A DNA stretch of 64,000 bases from NCBI GenBank assembly GCA_024679065.1, contig JAGIQG010000013.1, positions 15,376,001 to 15,440,000 of the forward strand, in the 5' to 3' direction. The DNA comes from Sphyrna mokarran (Eukaryota). Position numbers and translations under genes: made by a program. Positions 6,596-53,796 of the stretch are shown one piece after another. The notes under the pieces were generated by a model. That model did not search any database, had not been told where the DNA came from, and saw nothing but the letters and a program-made list of their open reading frames with translations. Position 1 is the first letter of the stretch. The number at the start of each line of letters is the position of its first letter.

Positions 6596-6900
6596 AAGTT
6601 TATTTATCAGCATCACAAGCAGGCTTACATTCACACTGCAATGAAATTACTGTGAAAATCCCCTAGTCGCCACACTCCAGCACCTGTTCGGGTACACTGA
6701 GGGAGAATGTTAGATGGCCAATGCACCTAACCAGCACATCTTTTGGACTGTGGGAGGAAACCGGTACATTCGGAGGAAACTCACATAGACACAGGGAAAA
6801 CGTGCAGACTCCACACAAACAGTGACCCAAGGCTGGAATTGAACCTAGGTCCTTGGTGCTGTGAGGCAGCAGTGCCAACCACTGTGTTACCATGCTACCC
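6596..6900 (-). mobile_element. HE1-type V-SINE with the alternative (non-CR1) tail
   Basis: tRNA-like head GGTAACACAGTGGTTGGCACTGCTGCCTCACAGC, V-domain body, tail GTGGCGACTAGGGGATTTTCACAGT...AATAAACTT. The same type occurs at ~17170-17420, ~18980-19258, ~20370-20655, ~24365-24670, ~54395-54696, ~60240-60485 and ~63600-63897. Confidence 0.85.
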
Positions 6901-28630: not shown

Positions 28631-28816
28631 ATAATCTGCAAGCTTTCGACTTTCGTCTTTGTCAGGCAAATGCAGACCAGAACACTGCATTTGCCTGACG
28701 AAGACGAAAGTCGAAAGCTCGCAGATTTACTATCAAATAAATCGGTTGGATTTAAAATTGGTGTTGCCAGACTCTTACTGAGTTTACCCCAGTCCAACGC
28801 CGGCATCTCTACATCA
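28631..28816. mobile_element. Miniature palindromic PLE derivative (terminal repeat only)
   Basis: Two inverted hammerhead-containing arms. The tail TGAGTTTACCCCAGTCCAACGCCGGCATCTCTACATCA is identical to the tail of the 2.7-kb element. Possible 6-bp TSD AAATCG. Confidence 0.85.
28689..28726 (+). ncRNA. Minimal hammerhead ribozyme motif
   Basis: ATTTGC-CTGACGA-A-GAC(GAAA)GTC-GAAA-GCTC-GCAGAT. Stem II differs in sequence from the 37426 copy but still pairs. Confidence 0.8.
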
Positions 28817-34520: not shown

Positions 34521-34907
34521 ATGGTTCATTTGAATGCAAACCATGTAGTCATCCAGAACAAAGGGAGCACAGATTTAAGGTATATCTGAAAGTATCGAAT
34601 TAAGAGTTAGCCACTTGGCCCTGGGACCTGCTCTACCACTCAGGAAGAGTATGGCTGATCTGATTATAACCACAACTTCGCCTTCCAGCCTATAATTTTT
34701 TACTCTGTTGTTTATTCAGAGTCAATCTACCTTTGCCATAAAGATAATTAAAGACTCTGAATCAAGTACCTTTTCAGGAAGAGAATTCCAAAGACTCGCT
34801 CCACCCAGAGAAAACAAATCCTTGTCTCTGCCCTAAGTGTTGGCCCCTTATTTTTAGTAAAGTTTTACAACACCAATTTTAAATCCAACCAATTTATTTG
34901 ATAGTAA

Positions 34908-34947
34908 ATTCGCGAGCTTTCGACTTTATAGCCTTCCTCAGGCAAAT
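34908..34947 (-). ncRNA. Minimal hammerhead ribozyme motif (left PLE arm; sense to the host pre-mRNA)
   Basis: Reverse complement of the 37426-37465 motif, with stem II loop ATAA; core intact. Confidence 0.78.
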
Positions 34948-35161
34948 GCAGTGTTCTGGTCTGCAATAGCACTCATATCCACACAGACAGTCAGAGATTG
35001 CTGATTAGAATGCGAATCCTTACATCTAACCTGCTATTCAAGTGTTAAAGTGGCTAACAATGTGTGTGAAGGGAATCCTGAGCATTGGTTAGAGAATTGT
35101 GTATTTTCTCCAGACAGCACAGTAAGTGAGGTTTTTTGCTAACCCAGGCAAGTTACGGGGG

Positions 35162-36348
35162 TTACAGATAGTGTGTCATGAAGCCAAGATCCCTATTAAG
35201 ACCGTCCTCATGTGTGCGGAACTTGGCTATCAGTCTCTGCTCAGCGACTCTGCGCTGTCGTGTGTCACGAAGGCCCCCTTGAAGAACATTTACCCGCAGG
35301 TTGGAGGCCGAATGCCCATGACTGCTGAAGTGTTCGCCCACAGGAAGGGAACTGTTTTGCCTGGTGATTGTTGAGCGATGCTCATTCATCCGCTGTCGTA
35401 GTGTCTGCATGGTCTCCCCAATGTACCATGCTTCGGGACATCCTTTCTTGCAACGTATTAGGTAGGCAACGTTGGCCGAGTTGCAAGAGTATGTACCGTG
35501 TACCTGGTGAATGGTATCCTCACGTTTGATGATGTCGTCCATGTCTATGATCTGGCATGTCTTGCAGAGGTTGCTGTGGCAGGGTTGTGTGGTATTGTGG
35601 TCACTGTTCTCCTGAAGGTTGGGTAGTTTGCTGCAAACAATGATCTGTTTGAGGTTGTGCGGTTGTCTGAAAGCAAGAAGTGGGGGGGGGTGGGGATGGC
35701 CCTAGCGAGATGTTCATCGTCATCAATGACATGTTGAAGACTCCGGAGAAGATGTCATAGCTTCTCTGCTCCGGGGAAGTATTGGACAACAAAGGGTACT
35801 CTGTCCACCGTGTCCCGTGTTCGTCTTCTGAGGAGGTCAGTGAGGTTTATCGCTGTTGCACGTCGGAACTGTCGATTGATGAGTCAAGCGCCATATCCTG
35901 TTCTCACAAGGGCATCCTTCAGCTTCTGGAGGTGTCTGTCACGATCCCCCTCATCTGAGCAAATTCTGTGTATATGGAGGGTTTGTCCATAGGGAGTGGC
36001 TTGTTTAACGTGTCTAGGGTGGAAGCTGGAGAAGTGGAGCATTGTGAGGTTGTCTGTCGGTTTTCGGTACAGTGAGGTGCTGAGGTGACCGTCCTTGATG
36101 GAGATGCGTGTGTCCAAGAATGCAACTGATTCTGGAGAATAGTCCATGGTGAGTCTGATGGTGGGATGGAACTTGTTGATATCATCATACAGTTGTTTCA
36201 ATGATTGTTCACCATGAGTCCAAAGGAAAAAGATGTCATCAATGTATCTAGTATATAACCTTGGTTGAAGATCTCGTGTGGTGAAGAAGTCTTGTTCGAA
36301 CTTGTGCATGAAGATGTTGGCATACTGAGGTGCAAATTTGGTCCCCAT
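35162..36348 (-). pseudogene. PLE polyprotein fragment: RT C-terminal half, linker and GIY-YIG endonuclease
   Basis: RT motifs MGTKFAPQYANIFM, RYIDD, FLD, YRKPTD and SFHP; endonuclease NVAYLIRC...WYIGET...RMNEHR...GLN. Broken by stops (e.g. 35884) and a frameshift in the G-run near 35682-35690. Confidence 0.9.
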
Positions 36349-36354
36349 GGCTGT

Positions 36355-37210
36355 CTTGGATGTCTCGGCGCTCTACACTAACATCCCCCATGACGATGGT
36401 ATTGCTGCAACTGCCTCAGTACTCAATGCCAACAACTGCCAGTTTCCAGATGCAATTTTACAACTCATCCGCTTCATCTTGGACCACAATGTCTTCACCT
36501 TCAACAATCAGCTTTTCATCCAGACACATGGAACAGCCATGGGGACCAAATTTGCACACAGGACACGGTGGACAGAGTACCCTTTGTTGTCCAGTGCTTC
36601 CCCGGAGCGGAGAAGCTACGACATCTTCTCTGGAGTCTTCAACATGTCATTGATGACGATGAACATCTCACTAGGGCCATCCCCACCCCCCCACTTCTTG
36701 CTTTCAGACAACCGCACAACCTCAAACAGATCATTGTTCACAGCAAACTACCCAACCTTCAGGAGAACAGTGACCACAATACCACACAACCCTGCCACAG
36801 CAACCTCTGCAAGACATGCCAGATCATAGACGTGGACGACATCATCAAACGTGAGGATACCATTCACCAGGTACACGGTACATACTCTTGCAACTCGGCC
36901 AACGTTGTCTACCTAATACGTTGCAAGAAAGGATGTCCCGAAGCATGGTACATTGGGGAGACCATGCAGACACTACGACAGCGGATGAATGAGCATCGCT
37001 CAACAATCACCAGGCAAAACAGTTCCCTTCCTGTGGGCGAACACTTCAGCAGTCATGGACATTTGGCCTCCAACCTGCGGGTAAATGTTCTTCAAGGGGG
37101 CCTCGTGACACACGACAGCGCAGAGTTGCTGAGCAGAGACTGATAGCCAAGTTCCGCACACACGAGGACGGTCTTAACAGGGATCTTGGCTTCATGACAC
37201 ACTATCTGTA
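36355..37210 (+). pseudogene. PLE polyprotein fragment: RT motif A-B segment fused by internal deletion to linker and GIY-YIG
   Basis: LDVSALYTNIPH...GTAMGTKFA then jumps to DRVPFVV...VYLIRC...WYIGET. It lacks the YIDD segment and has a 1-nt frameshift near 37100. Confidence 0.9.
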
Positions 37211-37425
37211 ACCCCCGTAACTTGCCTGGGTTAGCAAAAAACCTCACTTACTGTGCTGTCTGGAGAAAATACACAATTCTCTAACCAATGCTCAGGATTC
37301 CCTTCACACACATTGTTAGCCACTTTAACACTTGAATAGCAGGTTAGATGTAAGGATTCGCATTCTAATCAGCAATCTATGACTGTCTGTGTGGATATGA
37401 GTGCTATTGCAGACCAGAACACTGC

Positions 37426-37465
37426 ATTTGCCTGAGGAAGGCTGTAAAGTCGAAAGCTCGCGAAT
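37426..37465 (+). ncRNA. Minimal type I hammerhead ribozyme motif in the PLE terminal repeat
   Basis: ATTTGC-CTGAGGA-A-GGCT(GTAA)AGTC-GAAA-GCTC-GCGAAT: intact CUGANGA/GAAA core, 6-bp stem I, GNRA-capped stem II and palindromic AGCT stem III. Confidence 0.8.
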
Positions 37466-37859
37466 TTACTATCAAATAAATTGGTTGGATTTAAAATTGG
37501 TGTTGTAAAACTTTATTGAGTTTACCCCAGTCCAACGCCGGCATCTCTACATCATGACCCTTATTTTTATACAGTGATCCCCTAATTCTATATTCTCCCA
37601 TAAACGACAGTCAGCGTAAATCCTTTCCACAGTCACCCTGTCGAGACCCCTCAGGCTCTTACATATTTCAATCAGGTTGCCTCTTATTCTTCTAAACTCC
37701 ACAGATACAAGCCTAGCCCAGAATGGCATGAACCTGATTACATCAGCGGTGAGGGGTGGCAATTATTGGAAATGGTGACCTGGCTGGTCATCTCATGGCC
37801 AAAGAATGTGGGCTCAAGGCCCTGCCGTTTGCGTCATCCTCGCCACTTGCCTTCCCATC

Positions 37860-39785
37860 TATGTCATCCAAAAACTTGGCGACACTACATTCACTTCCCT
37901 TGTGTAGGTCATTAGTACATATTATAAATAATTGTGGCCCCAGCACTGATCCCTGTGGCACTCCACTAGTTAAAGATTGCCATCCTAAAAATGCACTTCT
38001 TATTTTTAACTCTCTGTCTTCTATCAGTTAACCAATCCTCTATCCATGCCAATATAGTACCCCACAACACCCATGGGTTCTTATTTATTAAATAGCCTTT
38101 TATGTGGTACCTCATTAGATGCTTTTTGGAAATTCAAATATATTAAACCTCTTTATTTATCCTGCTTGTTACCACCTCAAATAACTTTGACACATTTGTC
38201 AGGCATGATTTCCTCTGCATGAAACCATGCTGACTTTGCTTGATTATATCATGCATTTCTAAATGCTCTGTTATTACATCCTTTATAATGGACTCTAACA
38301 TTTTCCCTATGACTCAGACTTCTTTTCTCCAAGGAAACCAGTCCCGTCCTTTCCAATCTGTCCTCATAATTATAGCTATTACCTCTGGAATTGTTATTGT
38401 GAATCTCCTCTATACTCTTTCTACTGCTTTCATATCCTTCCTCAAGTGTTCAGAACTGGATGCTGTTCTCGAGATAAGGCCTAACTAGTGCCTTATAGAA
38501 GTTTAACATGATCTCCTTATTCTTGTGCCGCTATTAATAAAACCTTAGGTACCATTTGTTTTCATAACCGTTCTCTGAACATGCCTTACCATCTTCAATT
38601 ACTTATTACTTAATCTCTGTTCCTAGTCCTCCAATCAACTATGAAATATATGGCCTCTTTATATTCTTTCAGTCAAAATGAGTCACCCTCCAACTTTCTG
38701 CATTGAACTTTGTCTGCTACTTGTCTGCCAACCCAACCCAACATGTTTATTTCCTTTTGAATGACGTTCAAAACTGCCCTCATCACAGTTAATACCATTT
38801 CTAATCATCGTATCATCTACAACTTTTGAGAAAATGTTCTGAGAACCATAGCCCAGGTCATTAATCTGTATCAGGAAGAGCAAGGTCTCAACACTGACCC
38901 CTGGGGAACTCTACTACAAACCTTCATCCAATCTGAAGAACTTCCATTTATCACTACATCTTGTTTCCTGTCACTCAGACAATTCCTCATCCAAGTGCCA
39001 ATTTTTCTTTTTATTACATCTCCTAGAATTTTGCTCACAAGTCTGTTGTGTGACACTGTATCAAATGCCTTTTGAAAATCCATTTATACCACATCAACAG
39101 TGTTTGCCTTATCAATATTAGAATCATAGAACTTCTAAGGTGCAGACGGAGGCTATTTGGCCCATCGGATCGGCACCAACAACAATCCCACCCAGGCCCT
39201 ATCCTTGTAATCCCCCTAACATTAAGGGGCAATCGCACCCAAACTTGTTCCCCATAACTCCAAGTATTTACCCAATTAATCCCCCTAACTTGCATATCTT
39301 GGGACATTAAGGCCCAATTTAATATGGCCAATCCATCAAATCTGCACATCTTTGGAGTGTGGGAGGAAACCGGAGCATCCAGAGGAAACCCACGCAGATG
39401 TAGGGAGAATGTGCAAACTCCACACAGTCAATCCCCTGAAGCCAGAGTCAAACCTGGGTCCCTGGCACTATGAGGCAGCAATGCTAACCACTGTGCCACC
39501 ATGCTGCCTGACATGTTCTCTGTTATCTCCTCAAAAATTTTCAGCAAATTAGTTAAACATGACTTTCCCTGAATGAATCCATGCTGGCCTTCCTTAATTA
39601 TCCTGAATTTGCCTAAGTGACAACTGATTTTATCACGAGCTATCAGTTCCAGAAGTTTTCCCAGCACTGAAGTCAAACTGACTGATCTGCAGCCACCGGC
39701 TGCAGCGTGTTCTGAGCAAGTATGTAATATTCCCAATCCTCCAGTCCCCTGGCACCACCCCTGTGTTTAAGGAAGATTGGTAAAT
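37860..39785 (-). mobile_element. Old, fragmented CR1 LINE RT pieces with a nested SINE
   Basis: SVSLTSVLGKLLE, QHGFIQGKSCLTNLL, DFQKAFDTVSH, VPQGSVL and KVVDDT motifs. Confidence 0.8.
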
Positions 39786-40430
39786 GGGGAGGCGATGGCC
39801 TAATAATATTTTCACTCGACTGTTCATCCAGGTAGTCTACTAATGTTCTGAGGAGCAGCAGGTTGTGGAGTTTGAATTCAATAAAAAAAATCTGAAATTT
39901 AGAATCTACTGATCACTATGGAACCATTGTCGATTGTAGGAAAAATCCATCTGGTTCACTAATGTCTTTAGAAAGGGAAACCATCATCCTTATGTGGTCT
40001 GGCCTACATATGGCTCCAGAACCACAGCAATGTGGTTGACTCTCAACTGCTATCAAAGGGCAACTAGGCATGGGCAATAAATACTGGCCAGCCGGTGATG
40101 TCTCCAAGTCCCATAAATGAATGAAAAAACCTCACCTTATCAATTTTAAATAAAAATTGCCTTTGTACTAGTAATTGTGAGCTGTAGTACAGCAAATACT
40201 GAAACAACCATCAGCTGGGGAATTTGAGCAACGAACATTTCCTTTTCGCATGAGTATCACCGTATGATTATACTACATCAAAGCATGCTCCAATCCACTG
40301 GGCACATTTACCTTGGAGATTGAATATTACAAATTTAAGGCAGCATGGTGCAAACAAAGAACAATAAAAAAATTGCAAATAAACAAATGCGTCAGTATTT
40401 GAAGGATTAATTTACAAAACAGGTACTGAC

Positions 40431-40550
40431 CGGGGTGTTTCTTTCGTTTTATGCAGCATATGACGATGATGATGATGAGTATCAGAAGTAGAATAAACCC
40501 AACAATAGGCACCACAATAGCAGCAGCCAACCAGGCCCGATCTTGACTGG
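40431..40550 (-). CDS. IGSF5: IGSF5-like exon 4, transmembrane helix
   Basis: SQDRAWLAAAIVVPIVGFILLLILIIIIVICCIKRKKHP: hydrophobic helix, Cys pair and basic stop-transfer residues. Acceptor ctttgcAG, donor G|GTCAGT; 120 nt, phase 1-1. Confidence 0.9.
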
Positions 40551-43500
40551 CTGCAAAGTCAAATCAGGGAATTAGTCACTAGCTGACATCCCGAGCACAC
40601 AACCTATTTCTGATATGCAGTGTTTGGACATGCTGATAAGAAGCTATGAGGCTTGGGTTCAAAAACACCAGAGTGAAGTCAAGGTCAAGACATTCCCTCC
40701 CTATCTCACCTGAAGGTGTTGACTGTAGCTGGGATAGAGGTTCCAAAGGCACTTTCTTTGCTCACCCAAGCGTCTAACTTTTTATGTGAACTTATTTGAC
40801 TTTGAGGTTGTAAAGACTGAGACTTCGATCACCCAGTATCTTCATCCATGCATTTGAATAAATGGTATTAGCAATTAGCTGACCATCTCGTCCTAAGGGG
40901 ATTAAGGTCAATCATACACGTCCCCTCTTCCCCTCACCCGTCATTACACATCTGAACTCACCACAGACCATAATTTTAATGCCTAAAATCCCTTGTCCTT
41001 TTTCACGTAACTAACAAGAATTCTATTACTGCAGAATCATTGTAACATATTCCTGTTTAGAGTTCATAGAATCGTATAGTGCAAAAGGAGACCATTTGGC
41101 TCACTGAGTCTACACCACCACATTCCCACCCAGGCCCTGTCCCCATAACCCCAGGCATTTAGCCTAGCTAGTCCCCATGACAATAAGGGGAAGTTTAGCA
41201 TGGCCAATCCACCTAACATGCACATCTTTGGATTGTGGGAGGAAACTGAAGAACTTGGAGGAAACCCACACATACATGGGAAGAATGTGCAAACTCCACT
41301 CAGACAGTGACCCAAGCCAGCAATCAAACCCGGGTCCCTGCTGCTGTGAAGCAGCAATGCCAACCACTGTGGCACCACGCTGCCATGATCTAAAAAGTAA
41401 TAGAAGACATCAGAATTCTACAATAAAAGCAAAATACTGCAGACGTTCTTTACATTTTCGACGTTAGAATAGTGGTTACAGTTGAAAAATATTTCACCAG
41501 CTCTCCTGAGGTTGCTAAGTACCATAGAAATACGAGTCTTTTTGTTGTTTTATGATATAATTGTCACAAAATATTACACTCCTGACATTATTTTCTCAGC
41601 ATAATGTTCTGCAATATTTGTGTGACGTCAGGTGGTCATATAATGTAAGGAGATTTGCAAGATTCTACTAACCATTGATGTATCAACATTTCTTACTTTG
41701 TAACACTTTCATTTTTGAGTCCAAAGTTTGTCACTCTAGGACTTGAACGTGAGAAATGTAGCTGATACATCAGTACAGTCCTGTTACGGATACTGTCAAT
41801 GTGTTAAATAAAGACTCATCTGCCATCTCATTGATCTTGCTCTTGCTCTGGCTCTTGCAACTCCAAAGAGTTGTAAACAAAGTCCAGTCCATCACGCAAA
41901 GCAGCCTCCCATCTATTGACTCTGTCTACATTTTTCGCTGCTTCAGAAAAGCAGCCAGCATAATCAAGGACCCTACTTACCCTGGACATACTGTCTTCCA
42001 CCTTATTCCGTCTGGAAAAAGATACAAAAGTCTGAGACCACGTACCAACCAATTCTCTTCCATCTTCTTAATAGGAATTAGGATTATAGATAAGCCTAGT
42101 AGGTATGGATATGATACAGCGCAACTTATGGGCTGAAGGGCCTGTTTGTGCTGTAGTTTTTCTATGATTCTAAGATTCTATGATTCTTCCGTCAGGAAAA
42201 AGACACAGAAGTCTGAGGCCACATACCAACCAACTCAAAAACAGTTTCTTCCCAGCTGCCATCAGACTTTTGAACAGACCTACCTCATATTAAGTTGATC
42301 TTTCTCTTCACCCTAGCTATGAATGTAACACTACATTCTCCACTCTCCTTTCCTTCTCTATGCATGGTTTGCTTTGTGTGTAAAGTGTGCAAGAAACAAT
42401 AATTTTGACCATCTAATATTACATGTGACAGTAATAAATCAAATCAAAAATATAAAAGATCCCATTCTCACATTGCCCTGGCCAATATTTATCTCTCAAT
42501 CAATAACACCATGAATAAATTAACTGGCTATTATCAAACTACTACCTGTGGGAGCTTCCTGTTCACAAATTAGATGCCTTATTTCTCATATCGCAACCAA
42601 ACTAATCTTCAAAAGGTCCCTGTTTGACTGTGAAGCAATTTGGGACAGCCTGTGGTTATGAAAGGTACTTTATAAATGTAGGTATTTCTTTTAAACTTTA
42701 CCATCCTTTTATTTACGTGTCTGTCAAAGCAAATGATAGCACCAGCAATTTTTAAAAATTGTTCATTGACTCGCACCTTCTTTTCTTACATTCTCACGAG
42801 TGTTGACAAGTTTTGATCAATTTGATATGATGTTGATGTTCTCACCGCCAGCCACTGCTGTTATTATTATCCATATCATGTGGAATATTGTACAGGTTCT
42901 GACAGTCCACACTGGTTACCTTAAATATTGACCCATAAGTAACCTTTGTTTTGGGAACCCAAATTTGTCAGAAGATTAGCAAAGAATTGTTGTACACCAG
43001 TAATCAGTTTGAGAAGTGGAGAATGTGTAATAAAGATTAATTCTGAAAGATTGGGGTCTTCAATGTTACAGAACTTGTTTGTATACCAGAAAAGAAAATC
43101 ATTGAAAAGCATCCAGTCCACTAAATACTGAATTCATGGAGTGTTGTTTTAGCAGTGATGAGGAACTGATTGAGGTGATAAATTCAACAGGGAGCTGGAT
43201 AGATATTTGGTGAGGGAGGGTAGTTGAGAATGCTTTAAGACTGAGGTGAAGAAAAATTGTGAATTGTGTGGAATTCACTATCATAGAAAGTAGTTAAAGC
43301 CAAAACGTTTTGTGATTGTGAGAAGAAATTAGATATTACTTTTAAGGCTAAAGGAATCCAAGGGATATATGGGGCGGTGGGGGGGGAGTGGGACCAGAAT
43401 ATCGAATTTGGTGATCAGCCACGATCAAAGTAAATATTGGAGCAGGCTCAAAGGGCCAAATGGCCTACTCCTGCTTCTAGTTTCTAGGTTTCTATGTTTA

Positions 43501-44644: not shown

Positions 44645-44756
44645 AAAATTTATCTTGTGAGGGAATCCTCATACAGCCTTGGGTGAATATGTAGCTTGAC
44701 ATTGTGATTAATCAGCAAGCATCAACAAGCCTAAAGTTACTTCCATCCATACTTAC

Positions 44757-45056
44757 GCGGTTTCACAGTGATGTAAAGTTCAGCAGTTTTAGGCTGAGGA
44801 AGTGCCTTTATATTGGCCAGGCATCTAACTTCAGCATTGGCACTAAGTGTAAGATTTAATGTGCTGATGGCATTGTAGAGATGTTCAGAAGCTGGTTGAA
44901 AAGTGCTGGTGTACATGTTTGAAAGCACACTTGTTTGATTTTTTGTCCAGGTGATAGTCGGGGAAGGGTTCCACCCGTTTGCCTTACAGACAATATCTGT
45001 GCTACGGTTTGTCACCACAGATGAAATCTTGTTCTCAAAATATACAGTTCCGGCAA
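44757..45056 (-). CDS. IGSF5: IGSF5-like exon 3, second Ig domain
   Basis: VAGTVYF...IVCKANGWNPSPTITW...YNAISTLNLT...VRCLA shows the Ig C-W-C pattern. Acceptor ctgccacAG, donor C|GTAAGT; 300 nt, phase 1-1. Confidence 0.92.
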
Positions 45057-46139
45057 CTGTGGCAGAATAAAAGCAGAAGGTTAGTTTCATCAGAGGTAAA
45101 ATTGACAGTTATATTTCTGAACATTCTTTAAATAGGAACTATTCTGAAAATAGCTGAAGTGCTTTTTTTGTCCTTTGTTATCACTTCCTTTGCATCATAC
45201 AAAACACCCTCCCATCCATTGACTCTGCCTACACTCCCCAAAGCCTCGGAAAAGCAGCCAGCATAATCAAGGGCACCGATCATCCCACACATTCTCTCTT
45301 CCAGCTCCTTTCATCGGAAAAAAGACACAAAAGTCTGAAGTCAGAAACCAACTGACTCAAAAACAACTTCCTCCCTGCTGCCGTCAGACTTTTGAATGGA
45401 CCTACCTTACATTAAGTGGATCTTTCTCTACGCCCTAGTTATGACTGTAACACTACATTCTGCACCCTCTCCTTTCCTTTTCCCCTGTGTACTCTATGTA
45501 CACAATGTCTGTATGGCTCTCAAGGAACAATATTTAGCAGGCAATTGCCTAGTGGCATTATCATTAGGCTGTTAATCTAGAAACTCAACTAATGTTCTGG
45601 GGACCCTGGTTCAAATTCCACCATATAAGGTGATGGAATTTGAATTCAATTAAAAACATGCGGAAGTATCTACTGATGACTATGAAACCATTGTTGATTG
45701 GTGGAAAAATCCATCTGGTTCACTAATGAGCTTTAGGGAAGGAAGTTTGCCATCCTTACCTGAACTGGTCTACATGTGACTCCAGAGCCACAGCGATGTG
45801 ATTGATTCTCAACAACCCTCCATGGACAAGTAGAAATGGGCAATAAATGCTGGCCCAGACAGTGATGCCCATGACCCACGAACGAATAAAAAAAAACTTT
45901 GCACTGTATCCCAATTTATGTGACAATCATAAATTGAATCAAATCCTTGCTGTCAAACCTATTTTTTTAATCAACCAACTTAGAGATGTGAGAGTGTACA
46001 CTCTATTGATCCTTCTCAGAATGTGGGCATCACTAACAAGACTGGCCTTATTACCCATCGCCAACTATTTTGAGAAGGTGGGAGGCTTGTTACTTGAAAT
46101 GCTGGTAGCGTTTGGTCTGACTAGCTATACTTGATCACA

Positions 46140-47372: not shown

Positions 47373-47443
47373 GGTACTTGGCTCATATGGAACTCTATGT
47401 ATATATATATAATATATATAGAGTTCCATATGAGCCAAGTACC
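47373..47443. repeat. Perfect 26-bp inverted repeat around a (TA)n spacer
   Basis: GGTACTTGGCTCATATGGAACTCTAT (47373-47398) and its exact reverse complement (47418-47443). Confidence 0.95.
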
Positions 47444-52460: not shown

Positions 52461-53252
52461 TCACGCGGATAAATGTGTAGTGGTTCATTTTGGCAGGAAT
52501 AATGGGATGAAGGAGTACAATATAAGGGGTAGGAGTCTTAGCTGTGTTGTAGAGCAGAAGGATCTCGGGGTCCGGATCCATAGGATTCTTAAATCGGCCT
52601 CGCAGGTGGAGGAAGTGGTCAAGAAGGCGTACGGTGTACTGGCCTTCATTAATCGAGGAATTGAGTTTAGGAGTCAGGAGGTAATGATGCAGCTCTATAA
52701 GACCCTTGTCAGACCCAACTTGGAGTATTGTGCGCAGTTCTGGTCGCCTCACTATAGGAAGGATGTAGAGGCTATTGAGAGAGTGCAGAGGAGATTTACA
52801 AGGATGCTGCCTGGATTGGGAGGCAGGCCTTATGAAGATAGGTTGAGGGAGCTGGGACTCTTCTCACTGGAGAGACGTAGGTTGAGAGGCGACCTGATAG
52901 AGGTTTATAAAATGTTGAGAGGAATAGATAGGGTGGACTCTCAGAGACTATTTCCCTGAGCTGAAATGGTCACTACGAGAGGACACAGATTTAAGGTGCA
53001 GGTAAGCAAATACAGAGGGGATGTTAGGGGTAAGTTTTTCACTCAAAGGGTGGTGAGTGAATGGAATCGGCTGCCGTCGGAGGTTGTTGAGACAAACTCG
53101 CTGGGGTCTTTTAAAAGACCTCTGGATGAGTATATGGAAACGAATGGGATAGGAGGTTATAGATAGGTCTGTGGATTGGCAGATGTGATCGGCGCAACTC
53201 ATGGGCCGAAGGGCCTGTTTGTACTGTATTGTTCTATGTTCTATGTTCTATG
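52461..53252 (+). mobile_element. CR1 LINE, 5'-truncated and relatively young
   Basis: ORF2 C-terminus KCVVVHFG...EQKDLGV...LYKTLVRPNLEYCAQFWSP...ERRRLRGDLIEVYK...TRGH; (TTCTATG)n tail. Confidence 0.92.
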
Positions 53253-53360
53253 AACCCTTCATAATTTGAAACACTTCGATCAGAAGTCCCCTCAACATTC
53301 TCCCGGCTTTCCTGTTCTCCCCGCAGTCCCTCGGTTTTTTAATTGGAGAAATACACTGAC

Positions 53361-53675
53361 CTTGCACAAACAAATCTGCCTGTTGATATTCGTCAGTCTG
53401 AATGTTGCACTGCACAGTTGCATTGTTTTTCAAGGTCACAGACCAGATGATGAGTTCTGAAGTAAAAGTATCCCGGGTTGTATAGTTGCGTTGGCCGTAC
53501 TGAGGGTCTGTGATAATTGGTTTTCCTGGCACCACGGTAAGGACAGGTGAGCCATTCATTATCCAGATAATAATAGACCAAGGCTTCCACACCGTACAGT
53601 TGAATGCAGCATCAGAACCAAGCAAAACAAAGGCATTCTTTGGACCTTCTCGGATACTTGTAGATAAACACATAC
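53361..53675 (-). CDS. IGSF5: IGSF5-like exon 2, first Ig domain
   Basis: EGPKNAFVLLGSDAAFNCTV...IIW...PIITD...FTSELII...VQC...ADLFVQ closely resembles human IGSF5 Ig1 ([20 protein letters not shown]...PIITND...FTSEMII). Branch point CTAAT, polypyrimidine tract, AG acceptor, donor AG|GTCAGT; 315 nt, phase 1-1. Confidence 0.92.
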
Positions 53676-53701
53676 CTAAAAAAGGAATAGTGGACATTAG
53701 A

Positions 53702-53796
53702 TGAGTTGTTACAGAGAGTTAACACTTTCAACAAATAAATTTATGTAGCTGTACTTTCAAGTCATCCCATGAGTGTTAACTCTCTGTAACAACTCA
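53702..53796. repeat. Perfect 25-bp inverted repeat with a 45-nt spacer
   Basis: TGAGTTGTTACAGAGAGTTAACACT (53702-53726) and its exact reverse complement (53772-53796). Confidence 0.95.

Follow-up and report, generated by a model that had tools for sequence, protein, structure and literature searches.

The hammerhead motif described here lies at 37426–37465 of a 64-kb window, i.e., the whole stretch of DNA that was analyzed. It is part of an insertion of two Penelope-like element (PLE) pieces standing head to head between identical target-site duplications. Three exons on the minus strand lie to the right of this insertion. The features of the insertion and its surroundings are:

34845–34856, plus strand: left target-site duplication, 12 bp
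34857–37557, no strand assigned: complete insertion, two PLE pieces truncated at the 5' side and joined head to head (5' to 5')
34857–36354, minus strand: left arm with the C-terminal part of the reverse transcriptase (RT), CX4CX2C linker, GIY-YIG endonuclease and pLTR; short end at +58
35162–35701, minus strand: frame with linker and GIY-YIG domain (PF01541, E 2e-4, 22 bits, just under the cut-off of 22.6)
35884–36372, minus strand: RT fragment that includes the YIDD motif (PF00078, E 1.3e-4, under the cut-off)
36357–37557, plus strand: right arm with the RT motif A region, linker, endonuclease and pLTR; long end at +99
37212–37553, plus strand: pLTR, the 3' UTR after the stop codon at 37209–37211 and, in tandem copies, also the 5' UTR of the following unit
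37518–37557, plus strand: one-sided "tail" of ~40 bp between the short and the long end (a concept found in the accessible text of PMC8557442 and PMC11167929)
37554–37556, plus strand: ATG at the insertion's end, start codon of the ORF in tandem copies, +95 from the cut site
37558–37569, plus strand: right target-site duplication, the same 12 bp as on the left
40330–40563, minus strand: exon with a transmembrane segment followed by basic residues
44740–45108, minus strand: Ig C2-type exon (PF22705, E 3.4e-10)
53251–53718, minus strand: Ig-domain exon (PF13927, weak)

The exons at 53251–53718, 44740–45108 and 40330–40563 are assigned to one host gene for a type I membrane protein, presumably one that resembles IGSF5/JAM4-type proteins. 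As this gene lies on the minus strand, the 37426 copy on the plus strand would be antisense to it. The mapped exons cover the Ig domains and the transmembrane segment, so that the PLE insertions may be intronic in this gene. Many dispersed SINE-like repeats were found on both strands, e.g., at 6694–6899, 19060–19465 and 39303–39508, which we take to resemble elasmobranch HE1-type SINEs. Near-perfect hairpins at 47373–47443 and 22998–23101 gave matches to miRNA models far below the gathering scores.

The two arms of the insertion form an inverted repeat (34858–35820 versus 36556–37515, 97.8% match), and the right arm carries an internal deletion of ~0.5 kb near 36557. Truncation of both arms at the 5' side, together with the loss of these ~0.5 kb from the right arm, has left the insertion nonfunctional as a coding unit. 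The linker, CHSNLCKTC, precedes the endonuclease, and the GIY-YIG domain is C-terminal to the RT; a longer RT frame in another genomic copy (L061) passed the PF00078 cut-off with an E value of 1.3e-9. The hammerhead, carried by the right arm, thus belongs to the pLTR of an element with RT and GIY-YIG domains. We assign the host to the EN+ PLEs, Neptune type, by the CX4CX2C linker, which fits the CX2-5CxxC form given for the Neptune clade and which Nematis shares. As far as the accessible text of Li et al. (2026, bioRxiv 10.64898/2026.07.22.740005) goes, only Neptune and Poseidon were found in vertebrates. Our literature search found no paper joining Penelope-like elements, Neptune and shark.

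At four other loci (L165, L174, L183 and L218), seemingly solo short-end copies carry a tiny inverted long-end piece at their 5' side. These pieces hint at priming from both target strands as a rule in the family. A literature search joining Penelope, twin priming and inverted copies returned off-topic papers only.

The motif was identified by reading of the sequence and by a descriptor scan. It is composed as follows:

37426–37465, plus strand: minimal type I hammerhead
37426–37431 and 37460–37465, plus strand: stem I (AUUUGC/GCGAAU)
37432–37438, plus strand: core CUGAGGA
37439, plus strand: extra A
37440–37451, plus strand: stem II (GGCU-GUAA-AGUC)
37452–37455, plus strand: GAAA box
37455–37458, plus strand: AGCU palindrome (stem III)
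37459, plus strand: C17, with the predicted cut directly after it

This anatomy had been proposed by a sequence-only reading of the DNA, and we confirmed it for both boxes, stems I and II, the extra A, AGCU and C17 at 37459. On re-reading, the description given there for a second copy at 28689–28726 was correct as well. The 37426 motif contains the core boxes CUGANGA and GAAA, U16.1-H17 and type I closure in stem I. A stable helix III is absent, and positions 15.2–16.2 are palindromic, with AGCU in three of three window copies. All sequence features that define the published minimal, dimer-type hammerheads of PLE pLTRs were hence found, and the earlier reading was right to place the motif among them, cleavage itself being predicted. 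The folding energy of the motif was not unusual (MFE z-score about −1). Rfam hammerhead models gave no match at E ≤ 1, and the 12 matches obtained in the window were weak miRNA-like hairpins.

We scanned the 64-kb window with a minimal hammerhead descriptor that demanded both core boxes, at least 3 bp in stem II, at least 4 bp in stem I and a palindrome as stem III. It gave exactly three matches, 37426(+), 28689(+) and 34908–34947(−), and no hammerhead of another family passed. In 200 dinucleotide shuffles of the window, the mean number of matches was 0.005 and the maximum one. The further copies and their surroundings are:

28633–28675, minus strand: inverted copy folded back on the 28689 motif, joint hairpin of ~43 bp and −73.5 kcal/mol
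28689–28726, plus strand: sister-subfamily hammerhead in a short separate insertion (28670–28815)
34908–34947, minus strand: third hammerhead copy, on the left arm of the 34857–37557 insertion, one loop II base different from the 37426 copy

The third copy was absent from the earlier reading. For the 28.6-kb insertion a target duplication was not found, the best flank match being 6 nt. The fold-back junction at 28633–28726 coincides with a small hairpin that the element itself carries immediately 5' of stem I, which suggests snap-back priming. Fold-backs at or near the stem III palindrome also occur in other genomic copies (L192/L193 and L205).

The 2.77-Gb genome contained at least 23,899 matches to a tight core pattern, compared with a single match for the reversed control; a looser core pattern gave 39,288 matches versus 2623 for its control. 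The family is young and very abundant, and the 37426 motif is one of tens of thousands in the genome. Among the first 100 listed loose matches, counted by eye, stem III was AGCT in 92 and an A followed A9 in 96, stem III and the extra base both being unconstrained in the search. The G10.1-C11.1 pair was present in 95 of 99 tight sites, with the C fixed by the search pattern.

Stem pairing was analyzed in the first 100 listed tight matches (first 10 Mb of contig C1), which correspond to 99 distinct sites. Position I.2 was G-C in 59 and A-U in 25 sites, and I.3 was C-G in 29, U-A in 26 and U-G in 21. Stem II varied in a similar manner, with A-U (39), G-C (31) and G-U (23) at II.2 and C-G (66), A-U (14) and G-C (9) at II.3. 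When the 69 distinct types were shuffled, ignoring relatedness, the observed pairing was reached in 0 of 5000 shuffles for I.2, 1 of 5000 for II.2 and 0 of 5000 for II.3. Pairing at I.3 was no better than in shuffles (52 of 69 types paired, reached by 956 of 5000). In 24 sequences hand-picked for diversity, 90.7% of the cells paired versus 81.7% after shuffling, relatedness again being ignored, and 30 cells were both-sided versus 11 in shuffles; the count of four both-sided pairs was reached by 77 of 500 shuffles. We read these patterns as compensatory changes between subfamilies in stems I and II, significant at I.2, II.2 and II.3 and not significant at I.3. The sequence-only reading had claimed structural covariation from the 37426 and 28689 copies. 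Compensatory changes do occur across subfamilies, but these two copies show only one-sided G-U/A-U swaps and a shorter stem II.

The motif had also been called intact, which is true of its sequence. Its insertion, however, has no same-strand partner, and the arms are 98% complementary across the motif. Because the partner in the insertion lies on the opposite strand, a cis dimer is impossible, and within a read-through RNA the motif would be hidden in a long duplex. From this arrangement, the 37426 copy is probably inert at its locus. At 60 genomic loci, a partner within 1.5 kb was inverted in 24, direct in one and absent in 33; in two, no core was found by pattern. ViennaRNA calculations did not favor the active fold, giving −14.9 kcal/mol for the double hammerhead versus −24.7 kcal/mol for an alternative dimer, and the probability of stem I in the pLTR context was 0.01–0.04. 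When raw RNA reads from four 2026 runs were searched, none was placed on the 3-kb unit, which has no bearing on cleavage either way. Contigs of four runs carry family sequence over the motif, where contigs cannot show RNA ends and a DNA origin is possible. One X3 contig spans the cut site, and no GT..AG splice joint is listed in the contigs.

A near-complete pLTR-ORF-pLTR copy (L017/L061) defines a unit of 3018 nt in which the ORF AUG lies at +95 from the cut site. The same pLTR-ORF junction is found in L041, within a 432-nt deleted tandem. On its minus strand (1032–1651), L041 reads pLTR, AUG plus ~28 codons, deletion and pLTR, with two same-strand hammerheads, and it is a natural cis-dimer candidate. 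As tandem copies run on into an ORF with its AUG at +95, cleavage would set the 5' leader of the unit that follows.

The genomic ends of the 99 sites clustered relative to the cut, with 36 at +50–68, 48 at +88–106, one beyond and 14 elsewhere. One long and one shorter end were combined in 33 of 36 inverted pairs, and in 12 of 14 among the pairs not selected for the tail; a flank match of 9–14 nt was shared in 28 of the 36. The window insertion fits this pattern with +99 in the right and +58 in the left arm. The long genomic end is located 95–99 nt past the cut site, and every copy carries 58–99 nt downstream of the cut. A distance of about 100 nt from the 3' end, as given in the earlier reading, therefore holds for the genomic DNA copy; it most likely does not hold for the RNA, as tandem copies continue into the ORF. 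Most likely, the long genomic end is a reverse-transcription start point rather than an RNA end. Since copies continue 58–99 nt past the cut, their template cannot have been an RNA that stopped there.

Reverse transcription that began at +58 or +95 on a cut RNA should yield copies whose first base lies at the cut site. We looked for such copies with start patterns from which the normal upstream bases were barred. Of 25,370 cases, 123 started at the cut site (at most ~1.7% after correction), compared with 62 starts at +2 and 53 at −4. At the 5' edge of stem I, there were 196 starts in 17,033. Assuming flat starts, the density per nt was ~0.9% at the cut, ~1.0% at +2, ~0.45% at −4 and ~1.9% at the stem I 5' edge. 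These patterns hence revealed no peak at the cut site, the density there being no higher than at +2; the counts are crude, as many inspected junctions were fold-backs or internal deletions. Homology was lost within 19 nt upstream of the core in 30 of 99 sites, a number raised by old copies that have no near relative in the set. The excess at the stem I 5' edge could reflect a transcription start or RT drop-off. Genomic copies span the cut site uncut. Together with the missing start peak, this agrees with the Poseidon element PAc from Anolis carolinensis, i.e., with uncut RNA as template. According to the accessible text of Frangieh et al. (2024, PMC11167929), PAc uses mainly uncut RNA as substrate, requires protein for cleavage and has a tail that is set by two internal RT starts.

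We consider it likely that the motif is the minimal hammerhead of a Neptune-type PLE pLTR, that this copy, lying in a broken insertion, is inert, and that an intact parent would cut weakly, aided by a second copy or an element protein, 94 nt ahead of the next AUG. Tandem read-through transcripts would carry two hammerheads ~3 kb apart, whose AGCU palindromes could pair and form stem III. Occasional cleavage would free unit RNAs with a 5'-OH and an AU-rich leader. Downstream of the motif, RT would begin at two end points, for the most part with uncut RNA, and copying from both strands of a 9–14 nt staggered cut may give rise to the inverted, one-tailed insertions.

Alternatively, the fold might be kept for protein binding, with a role in RT/endonuclease recruitment, packaging or an IRES-like function, and cleavage would be incidental or absent. 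Copies that span the site uncut without a start peak would be expected here too, and Naiad PLEs thrive without canonical hammerheads. In the accessible text of PMC11167929, hammerhead mutants left PAc insertion in vitro unaffected; the same text, however, reports that PAc core mutants abolished cleavage and that a double mutant partly restored it. Moreover, the full catalytic consensus is kept across the shark subfamilies, and variation is found where a ribozyme permits it, N7 being C, T, G or A and H17 being C, T or A. We therefore regard a pure binding function as unlikely.

A circular unit RNA, produced by two tandem cuts and ligation and used as RT template, was put forward as a model in the accessible text of PMC4209133. 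It would explain tandem units, and the deleted tandem L041 with its two same-strand hammerheads exists. In this model, copies would span the site though it had been cut, the genomic sequence being restored by ligation, and the lack of a start peak is likewise expected. Against a circular template, neighboring copies are mostly inverted (24 of 60) and tandem in only 1 of 60, and linear uncut RNA suffices in vitro for PAc (PMC11167929, accessible text), which makes this model quite improbable in our view. We give very little credence to the proposal of the sequence-only reading that the cut is a maturation trim of the RNA ~100 nt from its 3' end, for although the long genomic end lies 95–99 nt past the cut site, tandem copies have the ORF AUG at this very point, an RNA trimmed at the cut would lack the 58–99 nt found downstream in every copy, and two genomic ends are as expected of RT start sites.

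The likely reading as a Neptune-type pLTR hammerhead places the motif, judged by its sequence, among the published PLE minimal hammerheads; it is already described in kind, differences are quantitative, and in itself it adds nothing new to them. Cervera and De la Pena (2014, PMC4209133) described minimal hammerheads in the pLTRs of metazoan PLEs, among them Xena, Poseidon and Neptune of fish; in the accessible text, a Schistosoma motif had no activity as a monomer and low activity as a dimer. Our motif shares with these hammerheads the type I topology without an independent helix III, the palindromic 15.2–16.2, the extra base between 9 and 10.1, the G10.1-C11.1 pair and the occurrence in many covarying subfamilies, mostly as solo copies or opposite-strand pairs. 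In contrast, stem II has 3–5 bp here versus 7–8 in Schistosoma, the copy number is at least 23,899 versus ~4000 in coelacanth and ~9000 in Xenopus, and the AUG is located well downstream of the motif. Cartilaginous fish are not named in the accessible text of that paper, and supplements or figures of the cited papers may already list chondrichthyan examples. The window insertion resembles the EN+ PLE insertions of Craig et al. (2021, PMC8557442, accessible text) in its inverted 5'-truncated copy beside the 5' end and its 30–40 bp tail at one end, with no substantive difference; the 12-bp target duplication is clear here.

With PAc (PMC11167929, accessible text), the shark family has in common the hammerhead at the pLTR-ORF junction, copies that span the uncut motif and two preferred genomic ends 30–40 nt apart. 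In PAc, the AUG stands where stem II begins, inside the hammerhead, the cut falls 26 nt into the ORF, and the RT starts also lie within the ORF. By contrast, the shark family has its cut 94 nt ahead of the AUG, its long end at the AUG and a linker of the Neptune type, CX4CX2C. As the PAc AUG lies inside the hammerhead, the hammerhead/AUG geometry is not universal. With cut, RT starts and AUG separated (0, +58, +95), the layout of the shark family is cleaner than that of the anole element for testing an in vivo role. Conceivably, but in our estimate rather doubtfully, the hammerhead acts as a switch, in which uncut tandem RNA would be the RT template and RNA cut 94 nt before the AUG the translated message. 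The leader between cut and AUG is 64% AU and has no upstream AUG, and type I hammerheads in fungal virus 5' UTRs enable cap-independent translation, according to the accessible text of PMC13725137.

In the accessible text of Li et al. (2026, bioRxiv 10.64898/2026.07.22.740005), non-LTR retrozymes, which share the type I hammerhead and PLE pLTR origin, are reported from the only chondrichthyan in the sample. We ruled out a non-LTR retrozyme at 34857–37557, which consists of inverted arms with RT and endonuclease and not of tandem non-coding units. L041 is closer to the non-LTR retrozyme kind than the 37426 locus.
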